A stretch of 39,110 nt of DNA from an uncultured Myxococcales bacterium (GCA_964475235.1 CAYYVZ010000002.1:1-39110); one strand, 5' to 3'. Shown: positions 2,990 through 28,323, numbered from the stretch's first letter. Numbers and translations: made by a program. Notes: generated by a model from the sequence alone, not told the origin.

Positions 2990-3474
2990 TCCGTTCTCGT
3001 GTTTCCGCCTGGAGGAGGGCGTATCTGCGGCGCCTTTTCCGTCGACTGGACGGGAAAGCGCGTCTCCGCGGCAGGGGCCCGCCGCAGCCCGGGCACCCCT
3101 CGAAACGAGTTGGAGCCGTACTAGCAAGCACGTTTCGCGAGAGCGACCGGCGACGCCGCTGGAGTGGTAGCGACGGGCGCGGCTCCCGCTCGTGCGCGAG
3201 TCCGATCTGGCGAGCGCAACGGCTGCGGCGGGCGATGGCGCCGAAGCGCCGGTCGATGCGCGCGGCCGGCTGCTGGAGACCTGCGGCGGAGACTTCCATG
3301 CGCGGCAACTTCGGCGCACGCACAGTCGTTCGGCGCGACGGTCAACCATCTCTGCGACCTGCCGCGCATGGTCATGGACCGTCCACCCTTGGGGCTTGAT
3401 TGTCCCCGGAAACGCGCTACCAAGCGAGACCCGCTCGCCCTGCCGTGGGGCCCGGTCAACACGGAATCACGCCT

Positions 3475-5133
3475 ATGTCGCAACGTTCGTATTCGCTCGA
3501 GAATCCGCTCGCGTCCGTATCCACGGACAGCGCCGCCACATCCGCCGCGTCCTCCCCCTACGACCTTGCGCTTTCGATGGGCCGCGAGCTGATCGACAAG
3601 CCGCTCGCCGGTGGCGGGCTGCGCCGCGTGATGGTGCAGCACGAAAAGCAGCGGATGACGGTGTGGGAGCGCATCAAGGTCCTGACCGACAGCGAACCCA
3701 ACTTCCTGTGGCAGAACTGGGGGCCGAACCTCGACGGCGCCTCGATCGTCACCGGCATCGTGAGCATGAAGGGCCGCGACGTCGCGGTCTACGGCCACGA
3801 TTTCACTCTGCGCGCCGGCTCGATGGACGCGACCAACGGCGCGAAGCTCGCGCGTCTCATCTACATGGCGGGTGAGAAGGGCATTCCGCTGATCGGCATG
3901 AACGACTCGGCCGGCGCCTTCGTGCCGGCGGGCGTCGGTGGCCTCGACGGCTACAGCGAAGCCTTCACCGCGCTGAGAAAAATCTCCGGCGTCGTGCCGA
4001 GCGTGATGTGCATGTTCGGCTTCAACGCCGGCGGCGGTTCCTACCTCCCGCGCCAGGGATCGTTCATGATCCAGTGCGACGGCACGTTCTTCGGCCTCAC
4101 CGGCCCGGGCGTCGTCAAGAGCGTCCTCGGCGAGGACATCAGCGCCGACGATCTCGGCGGCCCGCGCGTGCACGGCCAGAGCGGAGTCGTCGACCTGGTG
4201 ACGAACGACGAGCTCGGATCCTTGCGTACCGCGATCCGGCTGCTGTCCTACCTTCCCGACAACAACCGCTCGTTCGCACCGCTGGTGCCGACGAACGATC
4301 CGGTCGATCGCTTCACGCCCGAAGAGGACGTGCTGTTCCGCAAGACTTTCTCGAGCCACGCCGGCTTCAACGCCCCGCTCGAGATCACGCTGTACCTGCA
4401 GCAGATCTGCGACCACGGCGAATACTTCGAGCTCCAGCCGCAGCGCGCGCGCAACCTGATCACGGCGTTCGGCCGCCTGGGCGGGCACGTCGTGGGCTTC
4501 GTCGCGAACAACAGCGCCGTGTCGTCGGGCCAGATCGACATCGCGGCCGCGACCAAGGGCACGCGCTTCATTCGCTTCTGCAACCTCTACAACATCCCGC
4601 TGATCTTCATCGAGGACACCACGGGATTCCTGCCGGGCAGTGCGCAGGAGCACAACGGAATCGTGCTCGCCGGCAGGAAGCTCCTCGACTCGATCATCGA
4701 CGTTCGCACCCCGCGCATCACGCTGATCATCCGCAATGCGTTCGGCGGTGCGTATGCCGCGTACAATTCGCACTTCACCGGAGCGGACATGGTGTTCGCG
4801 CTACCGACGGCACGCATCGCGGTAATGGGGCCCGCGGGTCGCGAGTACGTGTACAAGGACGAGCTCGCCGCGATTCAGGAGAAGCACCGGGCCGCGATCC
4901 GCTCCGGCGCTTCCGAGCAGGACGCGGCGAGCGAACGCGACCGCGAGCTCGCGCTGCTCTCGCAGAAGTACGAACGCGAGCTGATGAACCCGAAGGAAGC
5001 GCTCTCGCTGGGGTCGGTGTCGAGTATCGTGATGCCCGGCACCACGCGCCGCGTGCTCGCGAAAAACCTGCTGTTCCTGATCAGCAAATACCAGCCGGCA
5101 CCGATGAGCGGCGTGCAACGGGAGTTCGAGTGA
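3475..5133 (+). CDS. Second, divergent acyl-CoA carboxyltransferase, 552 aa; GcdA / MCC-beta-like by recollection; substrate unknown
   Basis: Carboxyl-transferase motifs are present: [88 protein letters not shown]. The C-terminus ends in ...GVQREFE. I prefer the ATG at 3475 to the TTG at 3400. The stop TGA (5131-5133) overlaps the next gene's ATG. Confidence 0.88.
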
Positions 5134-7901
5134 TGCTGGATCGCGATCTCACGCCGGCACGCTTCCACGAGTCCGAGTCGCCCTGGCTCCGGTCGCTTTC
5201 GCTCGAGCACGTGAAGTGCCTGATCGTGTGTCGCGGGCCGGTGCGCAAGGAGGCGATGGACGTCTTCGACCAGATGGGCATCCGCGAGTACGGAATGCTG
5301 CTGTCGGAGAAAGACTCGATCGTCTATCCCAAGTGCCTCGCGCCGGAGCTGCGCGGCTTCCGGTTCCCCGAGAGCGTGCATCGCATTCCCGAGTACATGG
5401 GCTCGGGCCAGGAAGAAAAGACGAGGCGCATCGGCGAGATCATCGAGATCGCCACGAGCCACGGCTACACGCACATCTTCGCGGGGTACGGCTTCATGGC
5501 CGAGGACGCGGAGTTCGTGCGCGCGATCGAGGCTTCGGGACTCAGGTTCATGGGCCCGTCCTCGCACGTCGCGGACGGCGCCGGCGCGAAGGACCAGGCG
5601 AAGAAGCTGGCGCGCAGCATCGGGGTGTCGGTGACGCCGGGAGTCGACAACCCGTCGGCACTCGCGCTGATTCGCAAGGCCGGCGACTTCGCGGGCCTCG
5701 AGAAGATCGCGAAAGAGCACGCGCTCGAAGCCGGGTTGAAAGCGAAGAAGCCGCTCGAAGAGAATGCCGAGCTGGTGCTGCAGGCCGGCTACCAGAAGCT
5801 GGTCGAGCTCGTGACGATCGCCGACCTCCAGAACGAGGCGGCGATCCGCTGCGACGAGATCTGGAAGGACAACCCGGGCCGCCGGCTTCGCTTCAAGTAC
5901 ATCGGCGGCGGTGGCGGCAAGGGCCAGCGCGTGATCTCCGAGCCGGGCCAGGTCCGCGGCGCGGTGATGGACATCCTGGCCGAGTCCAAGGTCGTCGCGC
6001 CCGGCGCGAACCGGAACTTCCTGATCGAGCTCAACGTCGAGACGACCAGACACAACGAGATCCAGCTCATCGGCAACGGCAAGTGGTGCCTGGCGCTCGG
6101 CGGCCGCGACTGCTCCGTGCAGATGCACGAGCAGAAGCTGGTCGAGGTGTCGCTGACCGACGAGCAACTCGACGTCGAGATCGCCGCCGCAAAGAAGGCC
6201 GAGAAGACGAGCGGCGCGAAGGCGCGCGTCAAGGCACTGGAGAACGACAAGACCGTCCTCGCCCGCATGGAGAAGGAAGGCGAGACCTTCGGCGAGGCGG
6301 TGAAGCTCGACTCGGTGTCGACCTTCGAGGTGATCGTCGAGTCCGACCGCCACTATTTCATGGAGGTGAACACGCGCATCCAGGTCGAGCACCGGGTGAC
6401 CGAGCAGGTGTATCGCCTGAAGTTCACCAACCCGGCCGACAAGAGCGAGTGCTTCTACCTGGACTCCCTGATCGAGGCGATGGCGCTGCTCTCGGTTCAC
6501 GGAGAGAAGCTCGACAAGCCCGAGCGCGTGGTCCGTAACCTCGCGGGTGCGGAGGTGCGCATCAACGCGACGAATGCCGCGCTGCAACCGCACGCGGGCG
6601 GCGTGATCGTGAGCTGGTCGCCGGCCGTGGCCGGCGAGCTGCGCGACGACCAGGGCATCGGCATTCCGAACCCCGATACGAAGACGTTCGTGCACTACAA
6701 TCTCGCGGGCGCGTACGACTCGAACGTCGCCCTGACCATCACGCACGGAGATTCCCGCGAGGACGTGCTGACGCGGCTCGCGGACATCCTGCGCCGGACC
6801 GAGATGCGCGGCTACGATCTCGAGACCAACCTGCTCGTGCACTACGGCCTTCTGAGCTGGATGCTCGGCCACGAGCCCCTCGTCAAACCGACGACCCAGT
6901 TCATGAACTTCTACCTCGCCGGCGTCGGTGCGCTGGACATGGCGGCGCGCGACCTCGACCTCGCGCATGCGTGGAAGAGCCTGCTGCGAGCGCAGGACCC
7001 CGAGGCGCGCAAGGTCCTCGAGCTGAAGCAGACCCTGTTTCTACGCCCGATCGAACGCATGCTCGACAACGCGCATCTGCTCGCCGGATTCGTCGGCCGC
7101 TATCAGGGAAGGCTGTTCGCGCGCGACGGAGAGCGGTATCGCTTCCTCGGGAACCCGATCGATGCGCTCGAAGCGCTCCACCACTACCTGAACCTTGAGC
7201 CGCGCGCCGGCCGTGCGCCGATCGACATGATCTGGGACCACGATCAGAGGATCCTGGACGAAGCGCGCGGCTTCTACGCCGACGTTGCGAAGGCGCTCGG
7301 TACCGACGACTACGCGAAGATCGACGAGGTGTTGTGCGGCGAAAAGCCGCCCTCGCGCCTGCCCGCCGATCGCTTCGCGGCCTGCAAGGCCGCACACGCC
7401 GGCTTCCAGCTCGGCTCGAAGATCCTGCTGCTGCTTCCGACGCTCGCGCGCGTGTCGTCGTTCGACGAGATCACGGTGAACGAGAAGCTCGAGCCCGTGT
7501 TTCCGCCGGTGTTCACCGATGCGAAGACGCGCGCCGACCTGCACAAGGCGCTGGCGCCGGCTCCCAAGACCAGCTCGGACGAGATCCTCACTCCGGTTGG
7601 CGGCATGTTCTACGCACGCGAGGCGCCTCATCTCCCGCCGCTGGCGCACGAAGGCATGCACTTCGTCGCCGGCCAGCCGCTCTTCGTGATCGAGGTCATG
7701 AAGATGTTCAACAAGGTCTCGGTGCCGTTCTCGGGAACGATCACGCGGGTCCTGCTGCCGGACGGCGACGGCAGGATCGTCAAGAAGGGCGAAATCATCT
7801 TCAAGATCGAGCCCGACGACAAGCGGGTGGAAGAGAGCGCAGAAGAGATCGCCGCGCGCAGGAAATCGCAGACGGAGAAGCTGCTCGGCGCGATCGGTTA
7901 G
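5133..7901 (+). CDS. Atypical biotin carboxylase - long linker - BCCP fusion protein, 922 aa
   Basis: ATP-grasp biotin carboxylase motifs: KYIGGGGGKGQRV, LGGRDCSVQMHEQKLVEV, FMEVNTRIQVEHRVTE. A C-terminal AccB-type biotinyl domain reads TPVGGMFYAREAP...FVIEVMKMFNKV, with the K857 codon at 7701-7703. The track ORF starts at 4008, but its first 375 codons overlap the upstream carboxyltransferase in another frame. The real start is the ATG at 5133, inside TGATG. Confidence 0.88.
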   Translation: MLDRDLTPARFHESESPWLRSLSLEHVKCLIVCRGPVRKEAMDVFDQMGIREYGMLLSEKDSIVYPKCLAPELRGFRFPESVHRIPEYMGSGQEEKTRRIGEIIEIATSHGYTHIFAGYGFMAEDAEFVRAIEASGLRFMGPSSHVADGAGAKDQAKKLARSIGVSVTPGVDNPSALALIRKAGDFAGLEKIAKEHALEAGLKAKKPLEENAELVLQAGYQKLVELVTIADLQNEAAIRCDEIWKDNPGRRLRFKYIGGGGGKGQRVISEPGQVRGAVMDILAESKVVAPGANRNFLIELNVETTRHNEIQLIGNGKWCLALGGRDCSVQMHEQKLVEVSLTDEQLDVEIAAAKKAEKTSGAKARVKALENDKTVLARMEKEGETFGEAVKLDSVSTFEVIVESDRHYFMEVNTRIQVEHRVTEQVYRLKFTNPADKSECFYLDSLIEAMALLSVHGEKLDKPERVVRNLAGAEVRINATNAALQPHAGGVIVSWSPAVAGELRDDQGIGIPNPDTKTFVHYNLAGAYDSNVALTITHGDSREDVLTRLADILRRTEMRGYDLETNLLVHYGLLSWMLGHEPLVKPTTQFMNFYLAGVGALDMAARDLDLAHAWKSLLRAQDPEARKVLELKQTLFLRPIERMLDNAHLLAGFVGRYQGRLFARDGERYRFLGNPIDALEALHHYLNLEPRAGRAPIDMIWDHDQRILDEARGFYADVAKALGTDDYAKIDEVLCGEKPPSRLPADRFAACKAAHAGFQLGSKILLLLPTLARVSSFDEITVNEKLEPVFPPVFTDAKTRADLHKALAPAPKTSSDEILTPVGGMFYAREAPHLPPLAHEGMHFVAGQPLFVIEVMKMFNKVSVPFSGTITRVLLPDGDGRIVKKGEIIFKIEPDDKRVEESAEEIAARRKSQTEKLLGAIG

Positions 7902-7951: not shown

Positions 7952-8629
7952 TCAGGTAGAACTCGGCTCGTCGTCTCCGGTCTCTCGCACGTTCGGAGGA
8001 AAGAGCTCCTCCGCCTGGAGTCGCAGTTCGAAGCGGGTCGGCGGGAGCAGGTCGTCCCCGCTCGCGATGCCGCTGTTCCGATAGACGCGGCCGCCCGCGA
8101 CGGGCTCGGCGAACCATTCCACCTGCCGCTTTCGCAGATTGATGATCCAGTAGTTCTCGATGCCGGCTGCGGCGTAGATGCGGGACTTGCTAAGGCGGTC
8201 CTGGGCGAGCGTGCTGTCGGCGACTTCGACGGCGAGCAGGCAAGTGCCGGGATGCTCGAACTGCCACTCGTCTTCGCGTGCTGGGACGACGGCGATGTCG
8301 GGTTCAGGAACAGAGTAGTTACCGGCGCTCACGGGAAGCTGGCATCGCACGATTGCGCGACCCTCGAGAAGCCTTGTGAGTCTGGTGGTGATTCGCCAGG
8401 TCGTTGCCGCATGCGCCGGGTTCTGCGGAGACCTCGAGACGATGAGCCCGTCGAGCAGCTCGACCCGTTCGCCTGCCTCGAGCTTGCCGTCCTCGACGAG
8501 CTGAAAGTACTCCTTCGCGGAGTAGCGGCAGGCCTCGTCGCGGGAGGATTCCACGAGAGGGAAGCTAACAGATGGCGGAAGGGGCGGGAAGGGCACCCCC
8601 AGCCGACGGTCCGACGCAACACGATTCAT
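7952..8629 (-). CDS. Uma2 (DUF820) family putative endonuclease
   Basis: YSAKEYFQLVEDGKLEAGERVELLDGLIVSRSPQNPAHAA...PEPDIAVVP...LLAVEVADSTLAQDRLSKSRIYAAAGIENYWIINL is the typical Uma2 core. The start is uncertain: ATG at 8629 or 8656, or GTG at 8554. The upstream part of the 423-aa track ORF is antisense to vapBC and I reject it. Confidence 0.8.
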   Translation of the reverse strand: MNRVASDRRLGVPFPPLPPSVSFPLVESSRDEACRYSAKEYFQLVEDGKLEAGERVELLDGLIVSRSPQNPAHAATTWRITTRLTRLLEGRAIVRCQLPVSAGNYSVPEPDIAVVPAREDEWQFEHPGTCLLAVEVADSTLAQDRLSKSRIYAAAGIENYWIINLRKRQVEWFAEPVAGGRVYRNSGIASGDDLLPPTRFELRLQAEELFPPNVRETGDDEPSST

Positions 8630-8698
8630 GACGCGCCTGTCATCGACTGCGTTCATGACATCGCGGAGCTTGCCGCCACATCGTGTTTTCCGCCATGT

Positions 8699-8714
8699 TG
8701 ATATCGTGATATCA
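8699..8714. promoter_or_regulatory. Perfect 7-bp inverted repeat TGATATC-GT-GATATCA, 9 nt upstream of vapB; putative antitoxin operator
   Basis: Read directly from the sequence at 8699-8714, in the divergent gap between the Uma2 and vapB starts. Ribbon-helix-helix antitoxins normally autoregulate through palindromes that overlap their own promoter. Confidence 0.45.
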
Positions 8715-8723
8715 GCCGGAGTC

Positions 8724-8972
8724 ATGGCCCAGCTCGTCGTTCGCGACCTCGAGGAAGAGGTCAAGCGCCGTCTGCAGCGACTCGCGCGACGCCACGGGCG
8801 GAGCATGGAGGCCGAGGCCCGCGAGATTCTCCGCGCCGCGGTTTCCGCCGAGCGTCGCGAACCGGGGCCGCTCGGGAAGCGCCTCGCTTCCCGCTTCGCC
8901 GGCATTGGACTCGACGCTTCGATTCCAGAGTTGCGCGGGCAGGGAGCGAAGCCGGTCAGGTTCCGCAAGTGA
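8724..8972 (+). CDS. vapB: Ribbon-helix-helix (FitA/Arc-like) antitoxin of a VapBC pair, 82 aa
   Basis: MAQLVVRDLEEEVKRRLQRLARRHGRSMEAEAREILRAAV is a classic FitA-like RHH N-terminus. Its stop overlaps the vapC GTG start (GTGA at 8969-8972). Confidence 0.85.
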   Translation: MAQLVVRDLEEEVKRRLQRLARRHGRSMEAEAREILRAAVSAERREPGPLGKRLASRFAGIGLDASIPELRGQGAKPVRFRK

Positions 8973-9388
8973 TCATTCTCGATACGAACGTTCTCTCGGC
9001 GCTGATGATGAGCCGGCCCGAGAAGCAGGTGGTGGACTGGCTGGACGCCCAGCCCTCGGAATCCATCTGGACGACCAGCGTTACGGTGTTCGAAGTGTCG
9101 TTCGGCCTGGCCATTCTCCCCAAGGGAAAGCGGCGCACGTCGCTCGAGCAGGCATTCGCGGACGCCCTGGCCGAAGATCTCGGCGATCGCGTGCTGGCGT
9201 TCGACGAGGATGCCGCGCGACACGCAGCCGCTCTGGCTGCGCGCGCTCGGCGTTCAGGCGGCCCCGTCGAGATTCGCGATGTTCAGATCGCCGGGATCGC
9301 GGCTGCCCGGCGCGCGTCGCTCGCGACGCGCAACTCGAAGCACTTCGAAGCATTCGGCACGAAGCTGATCGACCCCTGGCGACTCTGA
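8969..9388 (+). CDS. vapC: PIN-domain ribonuclease toxin, 139 aa
   Basis: MIILDTNVLSALM (first acidic residue), VFEVSFG (Glu), IRDVQIAGIAAARRASLATRNSKHF (conserved Asp and TRN motif). It has a 4-nt overlap with vapB. Confidence 0.9.
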   Translation: MIILDTNVLSALMMSRPEKQVVDWLDAQPSESIWTTSVTVFEVSFGLAILPKGKRRTSLEQAFADALAEDLGDRVLAFDEDAARHAAALAARARRSGGPVEIRDVQIAGIAAARRASLATRNSKHFEAFGTKLIDPWRL

Positions 9389-9406: not shown

Positions 9407-10585
9407 TCAGTCGTTACGCGCCTTCCACTTCGTCGTGCTGTCCGGATCGCCGAGCGGGACGGTGAAGCCTGCCTGCCAGCAGTTTCCCGATTCCTCGTTC
9501 TGGAGAACGGCGAGCACGGGGAGCGTGAGCGGCACCGACGGCACGTCGAGTGTCACGCCGCGCGCCTTGAGCTTGATCGACGCCTTGCCGTCGTCGCCGG
9601 CCTTGAGCTGGAGGCCGGTGAGCCCGCCGCTGGTGCCGTCGCGGTCCTTGTAGCGGAAGCCCGTCGCCAGCGCGGTCCAGCAGTCGTTGCCGTCGCAGGT
9701 CCCGCCCGCCGGTACGCGAAACCCGGTCGCCACGTCGTCGTCGCCTTCATAGACACAGAAAAGATAACTCGCCGTCGTCGTCGGGTCGTCGAGTTCTTCG
9801 AGGCTCGTGGCGGCGCCCTTCCACTTCCACGAAGCGGCGTTGCGATCGTTCGTGCTGCCTTCGACGAACGAAAGCGTGCTGCCTCCGGCGCTCGCGGCCT
9901 TGCAGCCGACCGGAGGCGTCTCCGGACAGACGAACGCAGTCGCGTCGAGCCGGACGTCGTCGAAGTTCACTTCGGTGCCGGGCGCGGCGTCGAGATTGGT
10001 GAGACGAATGCCGAGGGCCTGTCCGGCCTGTGGGTGCGAGACGCCGGTGGTCACCTGGACGGTGGAAGTCAGGAAGCGGCCCTCTCCGGGGAGGAGCGTG
10101 TTTTCGTCGCTCGCGATCACGACACCGCCGGCAAGAAGCTCGACGCGGTAGCCGGGAAAGCCGTCGAAATCGAAATCGTTGGGCGGCGGTGCGCTCGCCA
10201 TGTTGCCGATCTCGACCGTGAGCGTGTACTCGGTCGAGAGCTGGAGCGTCGCTGCGAGAGTCTGCTGCATGCCCGCTTCGTCGCCGGAGAAGTTCTGGAA
10301 GAACGTGACGCCGACGTTGTCGCCGTCGGGCACGGGCTCGACGTAGAGGATCGTCGAGTTGGGGTTGACCACGCCGACCACGCGCGTGTTCATGTTGAGA
10401 GTGCCGAAGCTGGTCCAGCCGGTGGGAGCGACGGCACCGACGATGAAGCTGTCCGGCGGAGTCACCGGCTGCTCGAAGCTCGGGTTGAGGATGGTGACTG
10501 GAGCCGCTGCGGCGAGTGCGGGCGTCAGCGCCAGCAGTAAGCCGGCCGCGGCGCACGCGAAACGGTCGAACGTCTGATTCGTCAT
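9407..10585 (-). CDS. Secreted two-domain protein of unknown function, 392 aa
   Basis: Signal peptide MTNQTFDRFACAAAGLLLALTPALAAAAP. The N-terminal domain starts ILNPSFEQP, which is a DUF642/jelly-roll-like start. The C-terminal Cys-containing beta-rich domain contains SWKWKGAAT...YLFCVYEG...GTCDGNDCW...SIKLKARG. GAGGGGGA lies upstream of the ATG. Confidence 0.75.
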   Translation of the reverse strand: MTNQTFDRFACAAAGLLLALTPALAAAAPVTILNPSFEQPVTPPDSFIVGAVAPTGWTSFGTLNMNTRVVGVVNPNSTILYVEPVPDGDNVGVTFFQNFSGDEAGMQQTLAATLQLSTEYTLTVEIGNMASAPPPNDFDFDGFPGYRVELLAGGVVIASDENTLLPGEGRFLTSTVQVTTGVSHPQAGQALGIRLTNLDAAPGTEVNFDDVRLDATAFVCPETPPVGCKAASAGGSTLSFVEGSTNDRNAASWKWKGAATSLEELDDPTTTASYLFCVYEGDDDVATGFRVPAGGTCDGNDCWTALATGFRYKDRDGTSGGLTGLQLKAGDDGKASIKLKARGVTLDVPSVPLTLPVLAVLQNEESGNCWQAGFTVPLGDPDSTTKWKARND

Positions 10586-10699
10586 GGGTCCCCCTCGAGT
10601 CGTCCCGAGCTTAGGGGGAACTCGAGCGGGCCGTCAATGCGGTCCGGGCGAATACGGACCGGGGAAAAGAGCCTCTTCCCGCGGCCGGACAACCTGGTC

Positions 10700-11980
10700 T
10701 CAGCCGGCCTCTGCCATCCGCGCAACCGGCTCGCGCCTCGGCACGTGCACGAACCCCACCTGGTGCAGGAACTGCGTCATGTGGTCGATGTACGCGCCGC
10801 GATCGAGATGCAGCAGGTGATTGCCGGGGAACCAGTGGATGCGGCAGCGTCCCCAGTGATCCCACAGCAGCCGCGAGTGTTTCGGCGGCGCGAGGCGATC
10901 GCCGACGCCACCGATGATCATGAGACGTTCGGGCGGCAGCTTCGGCTGGTACGTGAGCGGCGTCGTCACCGCCATGATCTCGCGCAGGTAGCGCACCGAC
11001 CAGCCGAGACCGAAAAGTCCCGTGCGAACGATCGCGCCGGCCGGCTGCCACTCGAGCAGCAGGTCCACCGGACTGCACACCGGAACGTTCGGGATCACCG
11101 CTTCGAGATCGTCGTGCAGGCTCGCGAGCAGCGCCGACGTCCATCCGCCGAGACTCACGCCCGTGACGGCGATCTTCTCGACGCCGCACTGGCGGCGCAG
11201 GTAACGCATCAGCACGCGCAGGTCGCAGATCGCCTGGCCCATGCTCTCATTGATGCCGCTCATGCCGGCCGAGAAGAACCCCTGGCCGCTGTAGACGGTC
11301 GAGTCTTCCGCGCGCAGCCCGTGGTGCGGCAACGTCGCGAGTACGACGTCGTAGCCCTGCTCGTAGTACTGCTGCAGCGAAAAGAAGCGTACGTTGAGCC
11401 AGTACGGGTCGGCCATGAAGCCGTGGATCGCGAGCAGCACCGGGCGCGGGCCGTCGCCATGCCGCCACCATCGCGCACGCGCGATGCGGTTGTTCTTGTG
11501 GCTCGCGAACACCGGATCCATGCGCGGGTTCCACGGCTCGTACGGCGACTCGAACTTGAGACCGATGCAGCGGCCGTCGTCCGGCTGGAAGATCGACCAG
11601 CGCGGCTCGTACTCGCGGACCTGGACGTGGTCGGGCGGCTCGCGGAAGAACGCCGCGGGCTCCTGCCCCGGCTGCACGAGGTCGATGTATCGCTGCCAGT
11701 CCTGCGGGCCGTCGAGGAAGCCCTTGCCGTAGAGCGACGGCAGGTATCCGAGCGGCAGCGTCGCCGTAAGAAGGGCGCCGCCCCACGTCCGCATCACCAG
11801 ATCGATCGCGGCGGTCGCGTTGACGCGAGCCCAGTCCCACGGCTCGAGCTCGAAGCCTTCCGGCCGGTCGCAGAAGTTGCTCTCGAGGTTATCCCACCAT
11901 TTTCCGCCGGGCAGGATCTGCGGCGGCGAGTGGCGGAAGCTGTCGTGGGCGATACGGGAGACGATCGAGGAGCGCGGCAT
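10700..11980 (-). CDS. Alpha/beta-fold hydrolase, 426 aa
   Basis: LLAIHGFMADP (oxyanion region), nucleophile elbow GVSLGG, GGVGDRLAPP (Asp) and FPGNHLLH (His). I prefer the ATG at 11980 (MPRSSIV) to the track start at 12016. Confidence 0.8.
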   Translation of the reverse strand: MPRSSIVSRIAHDSFRHSPPQILPGGKWWDNLESNFCDRPEGFELEPWDWARVNATAAIDLVMRTWGGALLTATLPLGYLPSLYGKGFLDGPQDWQRYIDLVQPGQEPAAFFREPPDHVQVREYEPRWSIFQPDDGRCIGLKFESPYEPWNPRMDPVFASHKNNRIARARWWRHGDGPRPVLLAIHGFMADPYWLNVRFFSLQQYYEQGYDVVLATLPHHGLRAEDSTVYSGQGFFSAGMSGINESMGQAICDLRVLMRYLRRQCGVEKIAVTGVSLGGWTSALLASLHDDLEAVIPNVPVCSPVDLLLEWQPAGAIVRTGLFGLGWSVRYLREIMAVTTPLTYQPKLPPERLMIIGGVGDRLAPPKHSRLLWDHWGRCRIHWFPGNHLLHLDRGAYIDHMTQFLHQVGFVHVPRREPVARMAEAG

Positions 11981-12097
11981 TACCCCCAAGATGCGTGAGT
12001 AACGAACGCCATACAATCGTTCGTTGCGCGGTCGATCGTTTTGATGCTGCCCGAAAAATGGGCGCTCGCAGCCACCCGCCGCGGGCGGGCCGGGTCG

Positions 12098-14324: not shown

Positions 14325-16370
14325 ATGATCAGCACCGTTGTCTGGACCGCCTGTTTTCTCGGCCTCGCCGGGCTGTTCGCCGCCCAGGCCCTGCAGCGGC
14401 TCGCGATCCTCGGTTACATGCGCCCGGCGGATCGCTTCGACAACCTCCAGGAACGCATCACGCGGACCCTGCAGTACGCCATCGGGCAGTTCAAGTTCTT
14501 CAAGGGGCCCAAGCACGACCGCAAGGCCGGCATCCTCCACGCCTTCGTCTTCTGGGGCTTCCTGATCCTCGGCTACCAGGTCGTCCACATGTTCGCGCGG
14601 GGCTGGTTCCCGCACTTCCAGCTTCCCCTACTCGGGGCTGCCCAGTTCGGCGGGCCCGTCGTGTTCCTCAAGGATACGTTCGAGCTGCTCGTCGCGGTCT
14701 CGGCGCTGATCCTCGTGTCGCGCTGGCTCTTCACGCACCCGCGGCGCCTCATGGGCTTCCTGCCGGCCGAGCAGCGCGTGCACGATCACCCGCACTGGGA
14801 AGCCATCCTCATCCTCTTCTTCATCACGGCGATCACGACGAGCGGGCTCGTCTACGACGCCGGCCGCATGGTCTTCATGGCCGGCGATCCGGAGATCGAG
14901 GCCGAGAAGCAGTGGGGCTGGGTCTCGTACCTCATTTCGAACGTGCTCGCGGGCTTCGGCCCCGGCTTCGCCGAGAGCGCCAGCAACACGGCGTGGTGGA
15001 TCCACAACCTGGTCATCCTCACGTTCATCAACCTGTTGCCGCAGTCGAAGCACTTCCACGTGCTCACCTCGATCCCGAACGTCTTCTTCACGAAGCTGAA
15101 GCCGTTCGGCCAGCTGTCGAAGCAGGACCTCGAGAGCGAGAACGCCATCTACGGCACCTCGCAGATGCGCCACTTCGACTGGAAGCAGGTGCTCGACATG
15201 TACTCGTGCACCGAGTGCGGACGCTGCTCGTCGCACTGCCCGGCGACCGCCACGGGCAAGCCGCTGGCGCCGCGCCAGTTCCTGCTGAACCTGCGCAACT
15301 ACCTCTACGAGCATCCCGAGAGCGTCACCGATCCGAACGTCGAGGGCATCGTCGCGACCGGCGAGGAGACCGGCCTCGCCGAGATCATCCACGACGAGGT
15401 GCTGTGGTCGTGCAACACCTGCCGCGCGTGCGAAGAGGCGTGCCCGGTCAACATCGAGTACGTGGACAAGATCGTGGACATGCGCCGCTACCTGGTGCAG
15501 GAGGCCGCGCGTTTCCCCACCGAGCTCACGCGCGTGTTCACCGGCATGGAGCGCCAGAGCAACCCGTGGGGAATCGCGGCCGACAAGCGCGCCGACTGGG
15601 CCGAAGGCCTCGACATCCCGACGCTCGCCGAGAATCCGGAGGCCGAGTACCTGTTCTTCGTCGGCTGCGCCGGCTCGTTCGACGACCGCGCCAAGAAGAT
15701 CACCAAGGCCGTCGCCAAGCTGCTGAACGCCGCCGACATCTCGTACGCGATCCTCGGACGCGACGAGCCGTGCAACGGCGACACCGCGCGCCGCCTCGGC
15801 AACGAGTATCTCTACCAGTCGATGGCGCAGATGGCGGTCGAGACCTTCGAGAGCTGCGGCGTGAAGAAGGTGATCACCAACTGCCCGCACTGCTTCAACA
15901 CGATCAAGAACGAGTTCCCGCAGTTCGGCGGCGAGTACCAGGTGATGCACGCGACCGAGGTCGTGAGCGACCTCGTGACGTCGGGACGCCTCAAGCTCGA
16001 CGGCTCGGCCGTGGGCTCCGTCGTCTATCACGACTCGTGCTACCTCGGCCGCTACAACGACGTGTACGACGCGCCCCGCCGCATCCTCGAGGCGCTCTCG
16101 GGCGTCGATCTCCGCGAGGCGGAGCGCTCGAAAGCTTTCGGCATGTGCTGCGGCGCCGGCGGCGGCCGCATGTGGGTGGAAGAGCGGCCCGACCAGCGCG
16201 TGAACTTCCTGCGCGTCGAGCAGCTCCTCGAGACCAAGGCGACGACGATCGCGTCGGCGTGCCCCTACTGCATGACGATGCTGAGCGACGGCGTGAAGAG
16301 CAAGGAGCTCGAGGACAGCGTCAAGAACCGCGACGTGCTCGAGCTGGCGGCGGATGCGCTGCAGGCCTGA
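14325..16370 (+). CDS. Membrane-anchored Fe-S oxidoreductase: N-terminal polytopic (NarI/HdrE-like) domain fused to an HdrD/GlpC-like domain; 681 aa
   Basis: Two ferredoxin motifs, CTECGRCSSHCP and CNTCRACEEACP. Two CCG-type Cys-rich domains: FVGCAGSFD...NCPHCFNT and YHDSCYLGR...MCCGAGGG...ACPYCMTM. About 260 aa of TM helices carry conserved His residues. GGAGG lies 4 nt upstream of the ATG. Confidence 0.88.
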   Translation: MISTVVWTACFLGLAGLFAAQALQRLAILGYMRPADRFDNLQERITRTLQYAIGQFKFFKGPKHDRKAGILHAFVFWGFLILGYQVVHMFARGWFPHFQLPLLGAAQFGGPVVFLKDTFELLVAVSALILVSRWLFTHPRRLMGFLPAEQRVHDHPHWEAILILFFITAITTSGLVYDAGRMVFMAGDPEIEAEKQWGWVSYLISNVLAGFGPGFAESASNTAWWIHNLVILTFINLLPQSKHFHVLTSIPNVFFTKLKPFGQLSKQDLESENAIYGTSQMRHFDWKQVLDMYSCTECGRCSSHCPATATGKPLAPRQFLLNLRNYLYEHPESVTDPNVEGIVATGEETGLAEIIHDEVLWSCNTCRACEEACPVNIEYVDKIVDMRRYLVQEAARFPTELTRVFTGMERQSNPWGIAADKRADWAEGLDIPTLAENPEAEYLFFVGCAGSFDDRAKKITKAVAKLLNAADISYAILGRDEPCNGDTARRLGNEYLYQSMAQMAVETFESCGVKKVITNCPHCFNTIKNEFPQFGGEYQVMHATEVVSDLVTSGRLKLDGSAVGSVVYHDSCYLGRYNDVYDAPRRILEALSGVDLREAERSKAFGMCCGAGGGRMWVEERPDQRVNFLRVEQLLETKATTIASACPYCMTMLSDGVKSKELEDSVKNRDVLELAADALQA

Positions 16371-22130: not shown

Positions 22131-25100
22131 TCACTCGATGACGACGCGAGTGCTCGCGGAGTGCCCGTAGACGTCCGGCGAGTACATCTCCTCGGCGCGA
22201 GCCGGCGGTACCACGAACGTTCCGGGGGTCGTCGCGCGTGCCGTGTACTCGTAGTCGTGGGAGCCGGGCCAGAGCAGCGAAGCGAATGCTTCCGCTCGGT
22301 CGTCGCGAAGATTCTGGTGGATCTGCCACGTCCTGTTCCACCAGCCGAAGTACATGTCGTCTTCGTAGAAGTCGTAGTAGCTCGGCGTCGCACCGGTGCC
22401 GGAGACGGGAGCAATGGGTTCGAGGCCGGCCGGAAGCGGATCCACCAGGGCGACCTGGTAGCGGCGTTCGTTGTTCCTCATCCCCACACGGACTTTCACG
22501 CGCGCGCCGAGGCGGATCTTCCACGACCCGTCGCCCTGCTGGACGACGTCGCGTGGATCGTCGGCGCCCTCGTACCGGCGGTCGACGACGAAGCCGCGCT
22601 CGGCAGGAACGAGGTCGAGCGCTTTCGGCGCGTAGCGCAGCGCTGCGCGGTAATAGAGCCTTCCCGGCCCGTCCTTGGCGATGGCAAGCGGCCCCTTCGA
22701 GCGCGCGAGGATGTCCGGCGTCGAGACCTTGAACGCCGCGCTCTCCGTGGAGCGCCCGCGGAACGCGTGCTCGCCGGCAAACCCATCGCCGAGCCAGACC
22801 TTCGCGAGAAAGTCCGGCTCTTCCTTCTCGAACGTTCGGAAGTACGTGTTGAGCGCAAGCAGCGCGAAGGCGTTGTCCTGGGTGTTCGACCACTGGCCCG
22901 ACTTGCGCTGCGCGAGCAGGCCGGCCGTGAGCTTCGGAATGACGGCGAGATCGGGACGTGCGCGAATCAGCGCCTCGAGCACCACGCCGTCGCTGCGGGT
23001 GGTGCTGTAGAACAGCAGCCTCGCGCGGTCTTCGTAGTCGGCCGGGAAGCTCGCGGTGCCGGAAGTCTCGCGCACGCGGCCGAGCACGCAGTCGGTGAGC
23101 GCCTTCTTCTCGGGTGTCTTCGTCGCGGCGATCGCCCCGAGCATCCAGCCGCAGGCTTCGGCCGGGACCTTGTCCGTGCCGCCGGCGCGCGCGATCACTT
23201 CGCGGACCCTGGCGACGTCCACGTCGCCGGAGAGAGCACGCACGTAGAGCGCATAGCTCGACGGCACCGCGCGCATCCACGAGGTGTAGAAGTCCGGGAC
23301 GGAGCCTTCGACGGTTCGCAGATAGCCGAGGCCCTTCTCGATCGCTTCGGGCGGGACTTCGTAACCGCGCTCCTTCGCACGAAGAAGCGCGTGCGTCGCG
23401 TGCGCCGTGACGAACGGGCTGGACGCCTCGCTCGCGCTCCACAGCCCGAAGCCTCCATTGGCCCCCTGCCGCTTGACGAGCTCCTTCAGGTGAGCCTCGA
23501 CGCTGCTGCGGATCGCCTCGGGGCTCGGCAAGCCGGACGCACGGAAGGAGGACAGGACGTCTTCCATCGCAACCACGGCGAGGATGCGCGACGACATCTG
23601 CTCCGCACATTCGTAGGGGTACTTGACCAGATAGAGGATCGCGTCGGTGAGCGACTGGAGGTTGGTGGACGAGGTGGTGACGTCGAGGCCGCCGACTCCG
23701 GGCCAGACGCCGTCCGGAAGCGCGAGGGGATGATGGACGGCGCCTTCGTCGACGACGCCGTAGACGGAAGCCGACTGCATCGCAGCCGGTGTGGATACGG
23801 GAAGCGTGACGCTCGCCGCATCTCCGGCCTCGCTGCTGGCCGCGACCACGTCGAAGGAAGCCTGGCCCGGAACGCCGGCGGCCGCCGGGAAGCGAAGCTC
23901 GACGCGGTCGTTCGCGGGGATCGTCACTTCGCGTCCGGCGCCCTGCGTGAGCGAAAGATTGCTCGCGCGCAGGGCGACCTTCACCGACGCTTCACGATCC
24001 GTCCGGTTCTGCACGACGACCGGCAGGTCGAACACGTCGCCGAAGTTGAGAAAGCGCGGTGCGCTCGGCCTCACCACCAGCGGCAACTCGGCGGTGATCG
24101 ACGCTTCCGCCTTGCCGAAGCGCGCGGCATCCGCGGCGGCGATGGCCATGATGCGGTAGCGCGTCACGCTGTCGGGCAGCTTGAACGAAGCGGAGGCCCT
24201 CCCTTCGGCGTCGGTCACGAGCGCGGGGAAGAACGCTGCGAGCGGGCTCATGTCCTTGCGCAGGAAGAGGGGAGGCGGCGCGTCACCGAAGCCTCCCGGC
24301 GCCTCCTCCGGCTCTCCGTACGCGCCGCCCAGGGCTTCGCCGGCCGGAACCTCGCCGCGCAGCAGCAGGTGCTCGCGTGAATGCCAGTCGCTGGCTCCCG
24401 GCCCGCGGTCTGGATGGAACGTTTTGATGGGATCGCCGAGAGAGTGGTTGGAGAGCGCAAGGATCGCCTCGTCCACGACGAACACCGCCACTTCGGCGCC
24501 GGCAACCGGCGCGCCCTTCGCGTCGCGCACGGAGATGGCGAAGCCGGCCTCGCTTGCCGGTGTGACGCTCGCGCGATCGGGAGCGACCGACACGTCGAGG
24601 ATCCGCGACTTCGGCGTCACCCGGAACTGGATCGCACCGCTCGCGTACGCAGGCCGGGGCGGCAGCGGAGCGCCGCCGTCCGGCTGCGTTCGCGGCGCCT
24701 GGCCGACGGCATCCACCTGCACCTGGAAACTCGGGGCCAGCGAGTCGGTGATGGGTACGTCGATCGACATGGTTCGCTCGAGCCGAAGCCGCTTCGTGTC
24801 GACGATGCCGCTGCGGCGAATCGTGACGGTCGCCTCGGCCGGATAGAACGGCGCGCCGATGGTGACTCTTGCGGTCTCGCCGCCGGCGTACTGCCTGCGG
24901 ATGCTCGAGAGCTCGATCTTCTCCTCCCGGACTCCCGTCGATTCGTCGCGATACCATCCGCTCGCATAGAAGGACGAGACCGTCTGGCTCACCCGTCCCT
25001 GCGGATCGGCAATCGACGCGAGGATGTCGTAGCTGCCGCCTTTCGCCGCATGAAAGCGGCAGGTCACCGGCTCGCGACCGCTCGTCACGAAGCAGCGCTG

Positions 25101-28097
25101 GACGTCCGTGGTCCGCTTTCCGTAGGTCCCGTCGCGATAGCCCCATTCCGCGCGGGAGGCCGTCACGTCGATCGGCGCGCCCGCGGCGATCCTGCCGTCG
25201 CGGTCGACGCCGATCACCGAGACGGTCACGTCGGTGCCGGGATCCACGTAGGACTTGTCCATGCGCAGGCCCACGTACAGGTCGGCGGGATGGACGATCA
25301 GCGAGGACTTCCTGTTCCAGGCCTGGCGATTGACGTCGATGACTTCGGTCTCCGCGGTCACCTTCATCGGTACGGCGGGATTCGCGCTCACGAGGTCGAG
25401 GTGGAGCGTGTGCGAGCCGTCCTGCCCGGTCGTGCCGCTGCTCGTCGCCGCCGGCCCGCGCGAGTAGCTGTAGTAATCGTATTCTCCGCCGTCGTACTCG
25501 CCGTATCCCCACGATGGGATCGCGCCGAAGTCGTACTCGCTGTGACCGGGTGGCACGAAACGGGTTTGCGACGAGCTCACCGTCCAGCGCACCGGCGCGC
25601 CGGCCAGCGGTCCGCCCGCGAAGTAGCTCGCGTCCACGCGCATGTCGGCACCGCCCCCGACCAGAGCGGGGCCGCCCGGCGACGACGCCTTCACTTCGAA
25701 CTCGGGACGCCGGAACTCGCGGATGTCGATCGTGTGCTCGCCCGAGCCGGCGAGGCCGAGCGCCGCCGCGTTGGTCAGCCAGAGCTCGATCGTGGCTTCG
25801 CCGAGATTCGCTTCAGGCGAGAGCTTGAAGCGTGCATCGAAGCCGCCGGCCGCGCTGACGTTCGACTTGCCTTCGGCCACTGTGTTCTGGCGCGCGTCGC
25901 GCACCCGGAACTGCACGCCTTCGAGCCAGGACGGCATGCCGACGTCGCCGCGCTTGCGGAAGTCCACCGTGCGGATCCAGCCCTTGATCGCGACTTCCTC
26001 GCCGGGCCGGTAGGTGCCGCGGTCGTCGTCCACGTGCCAGACGAGCTTGCGGTCGGTCGCCCCTGACCAATCGCTCCAGTACCAGTAAGAGCCTTCGACG
26101 AACGCGGAGTCGGCCCCGCGGCGTGCCACGAGGACGATGTCGTTGCGACGAGTCCCGTCCGGCATCGCCAGGGTCACGAGCCCGTCTCTGCCGGTGCGGC
26201 CGGAGATGCCGCCGGGCTCGAGCGACACGTCCACGCCGCTCGCCGGCGCGCCGCTCGCGAGCTCGCTCACGTACACCGTCACCGACTCGCGGTCGGCGAA
26301 CGCATCGAGGCCGAGATGCGTCAGCTGAATCCACGCCGTCGATTCGCCGGAGCGGTAGAAATCGTCGTCGTCGGCCTTCTCGACTTTGTCGGGACCGATC
26401 GCGACGATCGCATGCCCGAAACCTTCCGGACCCACGGCCGCGCCGAGGTCGATGTCGAGGACACGCTTGGCGCCGCGCGTTCCCGTCACGACGATCGTGT
26501 CGTCGAAGACCTTGGTTCCCGGCGCCTTCGAATAGTCCTTGTCGCCGTAACCGGCTCCCCAGCTCGACCAGGCCTCGTGGTCTTTCGGCTCGACTCGCCA
26601 GATCTTCAGCGCGAGCCGGTCGTAACCTTGCAGCTCGACCGGCACGGCCGGCTTCGCGCCGGGTTCGAGCACCGTCATTCCCCACGGCGCACGGAGGGAT
26701 GGATCGGCTTCCGCAACCCGCCACGCGCGCTTCTCGTCGCGGCCGAGCTGCTGGCCGCGCGTGTCGGTGATCTTGCCGGAGAACTTCACCTCGTACGTCG
26801 CGAGCGGCTGGACCTCGCCGCGCACGCGCAGCGTCGTCCCCGAGCACGACACGCTCATGTCCTCGATCGAAGGCGACACCTCGACGAACGAAGAAGTGCA
26901 GCTCGCCGGATCGAGCTCGGTCGAGAATCCCGCTTCGAAGCTGTCACCCGGGTCGCATGCCGTACGCTCGCAGGTCGCGTCGGTGATGGAGAGGGGAGGG
27001 AGCGTATAGAACGAGACGCTGCGCGCACTCCTGCTCGGATTCGGGCCCTCGGCCGATGGGACTCCGGCGAGGATCTCGATGGCGATGTGCGCGTTACGCG
27101 GCCACGGCGCGTCGCTCTTGAGGATGAGCAGGCGGTCGGTGCGTGCGTTCTCTCCAGCGGATTCGAGGAATTTCTTCAGGCGCGGGTCGGCTTCCTGCGC
27201 AGCGGCGACTTCGGCGTCGCTCGCGAGGCGCACAGCGGCTGCGTTCTTGGCGGCGCTGACCCTGACCAGCGGCAGCACATCGGCCGGAACGATCCGCTGG
27301 TCGAACTGGAGGACGATGGGCGTCTCGAGGCTGCCTCGCTCGTAGCCCGGCGGATAGCTGCCGACGACGTTCGGGCCGCCGGTGGTGAACGAGAACCGCT
27401 TTGCCTCGGCCAGCACGCCTCCGGCCGAGCTTCGCATTCCTGCCGGAATCTCGACTTCGTACGGCGTGGCCCCGGCCAGGCGGTCGGTCGCCTCGAACTG
27501 AAGCGTGCGCGAGTCCTTCCAGCGCCAGCTTCCCTCCGCCGCGGGCGTGATCTTCACCGGGGAACCTGCCGGCGCAGCCTCCGCCCACGTCGTCGCCATC
27601 GGCTGGCTGAAGACGACCTTCACGTACTTCGTGTCGCCGGTGTTGCCTTCGGGACTCCATTCGACGACGCGAAGTGGCGTGGGGACGGCGACCGTGCGCG
27701 GCGCGGGCGGCGAGGGCTCACGGGGCGGAGGAATCTGTTCTCGGGCAGGGGCTGCCGAAGGCGGCGGCGGACCGGGCTTCAGCACAGGCGCGCCGGCCGG
27801 CGCAGGTTCTGCGGCGGTGGCGGCCGGGAGCCGCGCGAGCAACCCGGTCGTCTCCTCGTCGGACAGCCTTCGCGCTTCCGGAGTTCGGGCGCGCTCGGGC
27901 GCCGGCGCGCTCGCCTGGCCTTCGGTCAGCCGCAGCGTCAGCCCGCTCGGAGCCTTTTCGATGGATTCGATCCGCGCGGCGAGATCGGCGGGCGGGGCCT
28001 GCAGCCGACCTGGACTGTCGCAGCTCGCTGCGAAGGCGGCAGCAACGACGAGAAGGATCGCGCGCGCGCTTCTTCGAATGTCGGAACGCGAGCGCAT
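22131..28097 (-). CDS. Alpha-2-macroglobulin family lipoprotein with an intact thioester, 1988 aa
   Basis: Lipoprotein signal MRSRSDIRRSARAILLVVAAAFAASC. A Pro/Ala-rich tether is followed by many Ig/MG-like domains. The thioester motif KYPYECAEQMSS places CAEQ at the complement of 23598-23609 (Cys1497). The thioester-domain helices include NGGFGLWS. Start taken at the ATG at 28097, not the track start at 28220. Confidence 0.9.
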   Translation of the reverse strand: MRSRSDIRRSARAILLVVAAAFAASCDSPGRLQAPPADLAARIESIEKAPSGLTLRLTEGQASAPAPERARTPEARRLSDEETTGLLARLPAATAAEPAPAGAPVLKPGPPPPSAAPAREQIPPPREPSPPAPRTVAVPTPLRVVEWSPEGNTGDTKYVKVVFSQPMATTWAEAAPAGSPVKITPAAEGSWRWKDSRTLQFEATDRLAGATPYEVEIPAGMRSSAGGVLAEAKRFSFTTGGPNVVGSYPPGYERGSLETPIVLQFDQRIVPADVLPLVRVSAAKNAAAVRLASDAEVAAAQEADPRLKKFLESAGENARTDRLLILKSDAPWPRNAHIAIEILAGVPSAEGPNPSRSARSVSFYTLPPLSITDATCERTACDPGDSFEAGFSTELDPASCTSSFVEVSPSIEDMSVSCSGTTLRVRGEVQPLATYEVKFSGKITDTRGQQLGRDEKRAWRVAEADPSLRAPWGMTVLEPGAKPAVPVELQGYDRLALKIWRVEPKDHEAWSSWGAGYGDKDYSKAPGTKVFDDTIVVTGTRGAKRVLDIDLGAAVGPEGFGHAIVAIGPDKVEKADDDDFYRSGESTAWIQLTHLGLDAFADRESVTVYVSELASGAPASGVDVSLEPGGISGRTGRDGLVTLAMPDGTRRNDIVLVARRGADSAFVEGSYWYWSDWSGATDRKLVWHVDDDRGTYRPGEEVAIKGWIRTVDFRKRGDVGMPSWLEGVQFRVRDARQNTVAEGKSNVSAAGGFDARFKLSPEANLGEATIELWLTNAAALGLAGSGEHTIDIREFRRPEFEVKASSPGGPALVGGGADMRVDASYFAGGPLAGAPVRWTVSSSQTRFVPPGHSEYDFGAIPSWGYGEYDGGEYDYYSYSRGPAATSSGTTGQDGSHTLHLDLVSANPAVPMKVTAETEVIDVNRQAWNRKSSLIVHPADLYVGLRMDKSYVDPGTDVTVSVIGVDRDGRIAAGAPIDVTASRAEWGYRDGTYGKRTTDVQRCFVTSGREPVTCRFHAAKGGSYDILASIADPQGRVSQTVSSFYASGWYRDESTGVREEKIELSSIRRQYAGGETARVTIGAPFYPAEATVTIRRSGIVDTKRLRLERTMSIDVPITDSLAPSFQVQVDAVGQAPRTQPDGGAPLPPRPAYASGAIQFRVTPKSRILDVSVAPDRASVTPASEAGFAISVRDAKGAPVAGAEVAVFVVDEAILALSNHSLGDPIKTFHPDRGPGASDWHSREHLLLRGEVPAGEALGGAYGEPEEAPGGFGDAPPPLFLRKDMSPLAAFFPALVTDAEGRASASFKLPDSVTRYRIMAIAAADAARFGKAEASITAELPLVVRPSAPRFLNFGDVFDLPVVVQNRTDREASVKVALRASNLSLTQGAGREVTIPANDRVELRFPAAAGVPGQASFDVVAASSEAGDAASVTLPVSTPAAMQSASVYGVVDEGAVHHPLALPDGVWPGVGGLDVTTSSTNLQSLTDAILYLVKYPYECAEQMSSRILAVVAMEDVLSSFRASGLPSPEAIRSSVEAHLKELVKRQGANGGFGLWSASEASSPFVTAHATHALLRAKERGYEVPPEAIEKGLGYLRTVEGSVPDFYTSWMRAVPSSYALYVRALSGDVDVARVREVIARAGGTDKVPAEACGWMLGAIAATKTPEKKALTDCVLGRVRETSGTASFPADYEDRARLLFYSTTRSDGVVLEALIRARPDLAVIPKLTAGLLAQRKSGQWSNTQDNAFALLALNTYFRTFEKEEPDFLAKVWLGDGFAGEHAFRGRSTESAAFKVSTPDILARSKGPLAIAKDGPGRLYYRAALRYAPKALDLVPAERGFVVDRRYEGADDPRDVVQQGDGSWKIRLGARVKVRVGMRNNERRYQVALVDPLPAGLEPIAPVSGTGATPSYYDFYEDDMYFGWWNRTWQIHQNLRDDRAEAFASLLWPGSHDYEYTARATTPGTFVVPPARAEEMYSPDVYGHSASTRVVIE

Positions 28098-28323
28098 CGG
28101 CCGCCGCGAGCATGGCGGCCGAGCACGCGCGAGACAAGCGGCGTTTCGGCAGAACGCCTGAAACGGAAGGCGGGCGGTGATGCCGGCCACCGTCGAAGGC
28201 AGCACGCGACGTTCCAGCACCTGCCCATCTTGTGTTGGCGGCGCCCCCTCGGCACGAACGCGACCGGGCGCGGTGGCCCGGAAGCTCCTGAAGGCGCCCG
28301 GGCGGCGCGGAGGCGAGAGAGGA

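Follow-up and report, generated by a model that had tools for sequence, protein, structure and literature searches.

Classical propionyl-CoA carboxylases carry the biotin carboxylase (BC) and the biotin carboxyl carrier protein (BCCP) on one chain and the carboxyltransferase (CT) on another. To our knowledge, all known acyl-CoA carboxylases with a fused BC-BCCP subunit dock this subunit on the CT core via a BT domain; biotin-dependent carboxylases as a class serve as a structural paradigm. Here we describe a family that substitutes a fold without a counterpart in the PDB. The case at hand comes from a 39,110-nucleotide stretch of DNA from an uncultured Myxococcales bacterium (GCA_964475235.1 CAYYVZ010000002.1:1-39110; the whole stretch is called the window below), in which a gene for a CT of 552 amino acids (aa) is followed by a gene for a 922-aa large subunit. 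We propose, with a probability of about 0.6, that this pair encodes a divergent two-subunit PccB-type acyl-CoA carboxylase, that its physiological job is the carboxylation of propionyl-CoA, and that the BT domain has given way to a helical domain of a new kind. The chemistry is known; the novelty lies in how the subunit is built and in its middle domain.

Both open reading frames (ORFs) lie on the plus strand where an earlier reading made from the sequence alone (the sequence-only reading) had placed them, the CT (beta) subunit gene at 3475-5133 and the large (alpha) subunit gene at 5133-7901. The stop codon TGA of the first (5131-5133) and the start codon ATG of the second (5133-5135) have one base in common, which can be read directly as gTGATGc and confirms the translational coupling proposed for the two genes. 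In relatives the junction is likewise a 1-nucleotide (nt) overlap, or a gap of at most 6 nt.

According to Pfam, alignment and AF2 modelling, the large subunit consists of a BC part with insertions, a helical domain, an AccB-type BCCP and a C-terminal helix. Existing models recognize it only faintly. Biotin_carb_N (PF00289, 43 bits), CPSase_L_D2 (PF02786, 58 bits) and Biotin_lipoyl (PF00364, 43 bits) are weak passes, whereas Biotin_carb_C (PF02785), at 25 bits, stays under its gathering score of 32.4 bits, and the NCBIfam accC model yields 141 bits against a cut-off of 626. In the NCBIfam scan of both proteins, not a single model reached its cut-off.

The extra residues of the BC part were measured by alignment of the 922-aa protein with E. 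coli AccC (MG1655). The N-terminal region is 22 aa longer (6-27), and the counterpart of the AccC segment KIVIANRGEIA is KCLIVCRGPVRKEAMD, which bears out the earlier claim that a KILIANRGEIA-type segment has been replaced. A further 12 aa are found at 77-88. The longest insertion lies where the ATP-grasp B domain begins and adds 55 aa (176-183 and 204-250, within 5658-5882 on the plus strand); residues 174-246 of this region form four predicted helices. Past QKLVEV there are 29 additional Lys/Glu/Ala-rich residues (341-357 and 371-382; 6153-6278, plus strand), predicted to form a helical hairpin; past the VEH motif (NTRIQVEHRVTE) there are 15 (430-444; 6420-6464, plus strand), predicted to form a beta-hairpin; and the last 8 are at 500-507. 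The sequence-only reading had counted about 55 extra residues between VTPG and the glycine loop, about 27 past QKLVEV and about 15 past VEH; the first and third counts stand, and the second insertion is real and slightly longer than thought.

The ATP-grasp catalytic motifs had been said to be intact, and fourteen of the E. coli BC residues checked are indeed kept (K116, K159, E201, H209, Q233, K238, E276, E288, N290, R292, Q294, V295, E296 and R338). The sole change among the catalytic and ligand residues checked is that of H236 to E333. E. coli K238 corresponds to K335 of the 922-aa protein, which is invariant, and Leu300 pairs with K202. The E. coli BC dimer-interface residues R19, E23, F363 and R366 are not kept.

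At the other end of the chain, the biotinyl domain (7575-7817, plus strand; PF00364) aligns with E. coli AccB without a gap, thumb segment included. The biotin lysine is K857 (codon 7701-7703) in EVMKMFN, and E854-V855-M856-K857-M858 is invariant over 53 sequences, so that the AccB-type assignment made earlier holds. Behind the BCCP follows a conserved helix at the C terminus (aa 902-922; 7836-7898, plus strand; seen in the alignment and the AF2 model), which is unusual and had escaped the sequence-only reading. The large-subunit features are conserved over 53 aligned family members of 35-93% identity and are not products of chance. An AF2 model of the 922-aa protein, built on the 53-sequence family alignment, has a pLDDT of 91.5 and a pTM of 0.91. 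Foldseek with the whole protein recovers BC domains (TM about 0.8, target-normalised; 21-25% identity) and is uninformative about the linker. A sequence search of the PDB revealed no solved structure with the insertions of the large subunit, and no characterised clade with the same insertions and length was found. The subunit is thus as atypical as had been claimed, in its length of 922 aa, in its insertions and in its inter-domain region.

The inter-domain region comprises about 225 aa (aa ~586-812; 6888-7568, plus strand) in the place that the BT domain occupies in PCC and MCC alpha subunits. When predicted alone (AF2, 22 sequences), it is compact and mostly helical, being built of about 12 helices plus a single small hairpin, at a pLDDT of 93.4 and a pTM of 0.88. 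Foldseek against the PDB gave a best E-value of 0.27 and TM values of at most 0.22, none of them significant, and no PCC, MCC, LCC, PC or ACC chain is among the matches listed. The same search against BFVD returned zero matches, and Pfam has no match in the domain. With the segment as query, phmmer found only 119 matches among 1.84 billion representatives, nearly all of them full-length proteins of the same layout (886-974 aa) or their fragments. These Foldseek and phmmer searches rule out a BT domain or another known fold. Because the region has no fold match in the PDB or BFVD and has relatives within the family only, it is a family-specific domain rather than a BT domain or a loose linker. 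The "helical linker" of the sequence-only reading was therefore correctly described as helical and as distinct from a BT domain; it is not a linker. We propose that this domain presumably stands in for the BT domain of classical PCC and MCC, holding the alpha subunit on the CT core, a role that we infer, as we do the oligomeric state.

The CT (PF01039, 356 bits) appears to belong to the PccB/MmdA/12S group, as a divergent member; both in the PDB and in NCBIfam, its top matches are of PccB/MmdA type. The NCBIfam mmdA model TIGR01117 scores it at 349 bits against a cut-off of 999, while a canonical CT that is also encoded in the window reaches 805 bits; the accA and accD models give 31-37 bits against cut-offs of ~317-319. 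Its best HMMER matches in the PDB are T. maritima 1vrg (318 bits), the S. tokodaii MmdA-like 1x0u (309) and S. coelicolor PccB (~305), followed by human PCCB (285), 12S (270) and AccD5 (267). An affinity to GcdA and MCC-beta had been suggested for this subunit. The PDB-wide search rules this out: PccB, MmdA, 12S and AccD5 chains range from 265 to 318 bits and MCC-beta and GCC-beta chains from 110 to 143, and GcdA is not in the best 60 matches. With ~34-38% identity to characterised enzymes, the CT would best be regarded as an outlier of the PccB/MmdA/12S group. Across 84 aligned CTs of the family, the oxyanion-hole pairs G186-G187 and G424-G425 are invariant. Together with the kept BC residues (H236 excepted) and the biotinyl lysine, both glycine pairs support a predicted catalytic competence.

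A separate feature of this CT is a charged, Ala-rich insertion of ~17 aa relative to the canonical CT of the window, located at aa ~455-500 (nt ~4837-4974). The large subunit might dock there.

The pair is not a rarity. More than 100 cluster representatives match the 922-aa protein at 58-93% identity. Its nearest named relatives are Binatia metagenome-assembled genomes (MAGs) at ~80%, and the window itself would probably derive from that group. A scan with one genome per species found a relative encoded in at least 562 genomes from four phyla. Carriers include Myxococcota (Sandaracinus, Polyangiales), Binatia, MAGs labelled Desulfuromonadales, Leptospira (L. interrogans, L. alexanderi, L. biflexa, L. 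vanthielii) along with other Leptospirales, and marine Gammaproteobacteria (Halieaceae, Cellvibrionaceae, Spongiibacteraceae, Oleispira, Thalassolituus, Bermanella, Bacterioplanoides, Dasania). Publicly, these proteins bear generic names ("ATP-binding protein") or, in Leptospira, the homology-based name "acetyl-CoA carboxylase".

For the neighbourhood survey, ORFs were clustered across 85 fetched loci, 84 of them evaluable. In 83 of the 85, the gene immediately before that of the BC protein is the CT gene, and one exception is a contig edge. From this adjacency we argue that the partnership of CT and large subunit is obligate. The only evaluable locus that lacks a CT gene is L049 (7890-10730), where tblastn detects none within 8 kb.

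The orthologues in L. interrogans Copenhageni are AAS70113.1 (555 aa, "acetyl-CoA carboxylase alpha subunit") and AAS70114.1 (914 aa), at locus L016 6327-10742; in name, length and strain they match LIC11517/accA2/Q72S69 and LIC_11518/Q72S68. Both subunits are abundant in this species. In its proteome the CT is represented by 35 peptides and ranks 8th in abundance, and the large subunit by 19 peptides (PMC8659334). The same data set also lists a separate 487-aa AccC and MccB (PMC8659334), so the pair is not the only biotin enzyme of L. interrogans.

The substrate is most likely propionyl-CoA, and the case for it comes from gene context. In a mostly gammaproteobacterial branch of the family (47-50% identity), the pair heads a conserved same-strand operon. 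At 27 loci of this branch it is followed, at a median distance of 18 nt past the BC gene, by a 137-aa methylmalonyl-CoA epimerase (TIGR03081, 142 bits, cut-off 115); at 24 of those loci a 719-aa methylmalonyl-CoA mutase comes next (NF006944, 1255 bits, cut-off 876), and at 21 this is followed by MeaB (NF006958, 477 bits, cut-off 329). Among the branch loci without these three genes, four end within ~160 nt downstream, but several others keep a flank of 2-8 kb and contain none of them. Epimerase, mutase and MeaB are the sole recurrent pathway context of the pair. The epimerase is required only where (S)-methylmalonyl-CoA arises, which is the product of propionyl-CoA carboxylase (PCC), and this points to propionyl-CoA as the substrate; we consider it the strongest substrate evidence. 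The sequence-only reading had held the substrate to be unpredictable, a view too pessimistic in the light of these conserved operons.

It has to be asked whether the operon could instead be part of something broader. Hypothetically, the pair acts on another acyl-CoA (butyryl-CoA, crotonyl-CoA or another enoyl-CoA, a branched or a medium-chain substrate), and the mutase link reflects a wider regulon for fatty-acid or hydrocarbon degradation. Many carriers, among them Oleispira, Thalassolituus, Bermanella, Binatia and Leptospira, degrade lipids or alkanes, the CT is far enough from characterised enzymes (~34-38% identity) to leave room for such a substrate, and a small alanine in its acyl pocket, described below, could fit larger acyl groups. 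However, the mutase of the operon passes the equivalog cut-off for methylmalonyl-CoA mutase and is accompanied by MeaB and a bona fide epimerase, and acyl-CoA dehydrogenase or hydratase genes do not recur beside the pair in the surveyed loci. The CT is also distant from the beta subunits of MCC and GCC, which use enoyl-type substrates, and nothing supports the enoyl-CoA that had been suggested earlier. We therefore consider this explanation very improbable.

The lineage of the window has a mutase link of its own. In the window and in L003, a relative of 92% identity, a divergent operon of canonical CT, small ORF, BCCP and mutase adjoins the pair. In the window this operon runs on the minus strand and includes a PccB/MmdA-type CT of 516 aa (1439-2989), which has 34% identity to the atypical CT, a small ORF (~1191-1442), a stand-alone biotin carrier protein of 153 aa with a counterpart in L003 (729-1190), and the N-terminal part of a methylmalonyl-CoA mutase (2-673), whose gene exceeds the window end. 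The two transcription units are separated by a divergent intergenic region of 485 bp (2990-3474) that presumably holds both promoters. In a 79% identical relative (L004), a mutase gene lies beyond the pair with a helicase gene in between, and the canonical CT and BCCP are not beside the pair. The mutase link in the window lineage is thus independent of the gammaproteobacterial operon and exists in two arrangements, that of the window and L003 and that of L004.

Neither in the window nor in L003 does the canonical CT/BCCP/mutase operon contain a BC gene. This would be accounted for if the 922-aa BC, besides its function in the pair, also carboxylated the stand-alone BCCP (729-1190) in trans on behalf of the canonical CT (1439-2989), so that both gene clusters would work as a single unit with two CTs. 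The shared 485-bp intergenic region fits such a division of labour, which would be compatible with any of the substrates considered here. Yet the arrangement is confined to the window and its 92% identical relative, L004 lacks a canonical CT and BCCP beside the pair, and in such cases the BC is usually supplied by a separate AccC encoded elsewhere in the genome. We think it quite improbable that the large subunit has this additional role.

Several observations weigh against propionyl-CoA carboxylation as the job of the pair. In the window, the pair is separated from the mutase by a canonical PccB-type CT and a BCCP, and these could be the real PCC of the source organism. At the loci of Leptospira, Myxococcota and most Binatia, the pair is on its own amid changing neighbours that offer no pathway clue, and because the branches are just 47-50% identical, function is carried from one to another by inference. 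Leptospira sequences are named acetyl-CoA carboxylase, though by homology only, and a literature search with little coverage of subscription journals found no biochemical characterisation or enzyme assay of any family member, but only mentions in proteome and transcriptome work. Finally, the position of D422 in S. coelicolor PccB is occupied by an alanine (Ala428), which is invariant in all 84 family CTs. An aspartate at this site is conserved among propionyl-CoA-carboxylating enzymes, an isoleucine there accompanies promiscuity, and replacement of the aspartate by a hydrophobic residue broadens specificity to acetyl-CoA and butyryl-CoA (PMC7835884). Since an invariant alanine replaces the residue that marks propionyl-CoA enzymes, a broader specificity for acetyl-, propionyl- and butyryl-CoA is possible. 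The residue at this position is isoleucine in 1vrg and 1x0u, the closest solved CTs, and cysteine in the canonical CT of the window.

These points lead to the rival that we take most seriously, although we still find it unlikely: a promiscuous acetyl-/propionyl-/butyryl-CoA carboxylase in the style of actinobacterial and archaeal ACC/PCC enzymes, which in Leptospira would mainly supply malonyl-CoA, so that the acetyl-CoA carboxylase (ACC) annotation would be correct there. Besides the alanine and the isoleucine of the closest structures, it draws on the BCCP, a thumbed domain of AccB (ACC) type, and on Leptospira, where the pair is genus-wide, highly abundant and in a context-free position like that of a housekeeping gene. 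What speaks for propionyl-CoA instead is that no fab or acp gene is linked to the pair at any surveyed locus, the recurrent context being limited to epimerase, mutase and MeaB. Gammaproteobacteria possess classical AccABCD, and the pair is therefore unlikely to be a housekeeping ACC in that branch. L. interrogans, too, expresses other carboxylases, as its separate 487-aa AccC-type BC indicates.

We have also entertained a more far-reaching possibility, in which the helical domain, together with the BC insertions and the C-terminal helix, makes for a holoenzyme unlike the BT-hook alpha6beta6 assembly of PCC and MCC, and this holoenzyme is a dual acetyl-/propionyl-CoA carboxylase that forms a main source of malonyl-CoA and methylmalonyl-CoA in Leptospira (pathogens included), Myxococcota and Binatia. 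This combination of claims we regard as doubtful. If it were true, a central enzyme would have gone unrecognised in this family, and it might offer a pathogen-selective target.

Under the reading that we prefer, a two-subunit propionyl-CoA carboxylase, the reaction would be ATP- and biotin-dependent. The BC domain would carboxylate the biotin on Lys857 of the AccB-type BCCP of the same chain, and the carboxybiotin would then swing over to the 552-aa PccB-type CT. Once there, the CO2 would be transferred by this subunit to the alpha-carbon of the acyl-CoA. Propionyl-CoA would in this way become (S)-methylmalonyl-CoA, which the epimerase and the B12-dependent mutase could carry on to succinyl-CoA.

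Other neighbours of the pair recur as well. At 11 loci (L022, L023, L028, L030-L032, L035-L038 and L043), purL, encoding an FGAR amidotransferase of ~1297 aa, lies on the same strand behind the pair, and in 7 of these adenylosuccinate lyase is next; the MAGs concerned are labelled Myxococcota, Deltaproteobacteria, Spirochaetaceae and Proteobacteria. The purL neighbourhood has no functional tie to the carboxylase. In the window, the pair is followed by a convergent ORF on the minus strand (7952-9223) for a 423-aa protein with a C-terminal Uma2 (putative restriction endonuclease) domain. Its GC content at third codon positions (GC3) is 0.75, below that of its neighbours, and L003 has a different gene in this place; the ORF may be a recent insertion.

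The remainder of the window holds nothing related to the carboxylase pair. An HpiC1-like cyclase-domain protein (392 aa) and an ABHD18-like alpha/beta-hydrolase (438 aa) are encoded side by side at 9407-12016 on the minus strand, and are adjacent in L003 too. A 681-aa HdrD/GlpC-like protein with a 4Fe-4S dicluster domain and two CCG cysteine-rich domains (14325-16370, plus strand) is conserved in L003. Further along, at 22131-28220 on the minus strand, lies the gene for a 2029-aa bacterial alpha-2-macroglobulin with MG2, A2M bait-region, TED and bMG10 domains.

An assignment to propionyl-CoA would correct pathway reconstructions for the degradation of odd-chain fatty acids, propionate and hydrocarbons in marine Gammaproteobacteria, Binatia, Myxococcota and Leptospira, and a structure of the holoenzyme would reveal a second assembly mode for carboxylases of this kind.

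How far the family stands from each known system depends on the part compared. With E. coli ACC (AccA/AccD, AccB and AccC) it has in common the BC chemistry and a thumbed AccB-type BCCP. However, its CT is a single PccB-type chain of 552 aa, its BC and BCCP are fused, and the residues of the BC dimer interface are not kept. MCC, GCC and GcdA belong to the same superfamilies (BC, BCCP and crotonase-fold CT), but the family CT scores low against the MCC and GCC beta subunits, and the family has no BT domain. The single-chain LCC (4rcn) unites BC, a BT-like domain, BCCP and CT on one polypeptide, whereas the family uses two genes; 4rcn matches at 89 bits in the BC and 78 bits in the CT.

The promiscuous carboxylases of Actinobacteria and Archaea (S. 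coelicolor AccA2/AccB/AccE, T. fusca AcCCase, M. tuberculosis AccA3/AccD5 and the Sulfolobus/Metallosphaera ACC/PCC) likewise have a PccB-type CT with a residue other than aspartate at the specificity site. The actinobacterial enzymes also have the BC-BCCP fusion of the family, and a multi-substrate scope may be common to both. In contrast to these enzymes, the family pair comes without an epsilon subunit gene, has an alpha architecture of its own, with the helical domain and the insertions, and is distributed over Myxococcota, Leptospira, Binatia and Gammaproteobacteria.

Classical PCC (PccA/PccB, alpha6beta6; 3n6r, 7ybu, 1xnv) likewise consists of a BC and carrier chain and of a crotonase-fold CT chain, to whose PccB lineage the family CT probably belongs. 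Relative to it, the alpha subunit has grown to 922 aa from a PCC range of ~600-730 aa; the BT domain is missing and the novel helical domain of ~225 aa lies in its place; the BC has five to six insertions; and an additional helix at the C terminus comes after the BCCP, which resembles AccB and has a thumb. The CT, ~34-38% identical, has alanine in place of Asp422, and no curated family cut-off is reached. Yet the catalytic residues are kept, and the family is, like classical PCC, tied to the genes for the epimerase, the mutase and MeaB.

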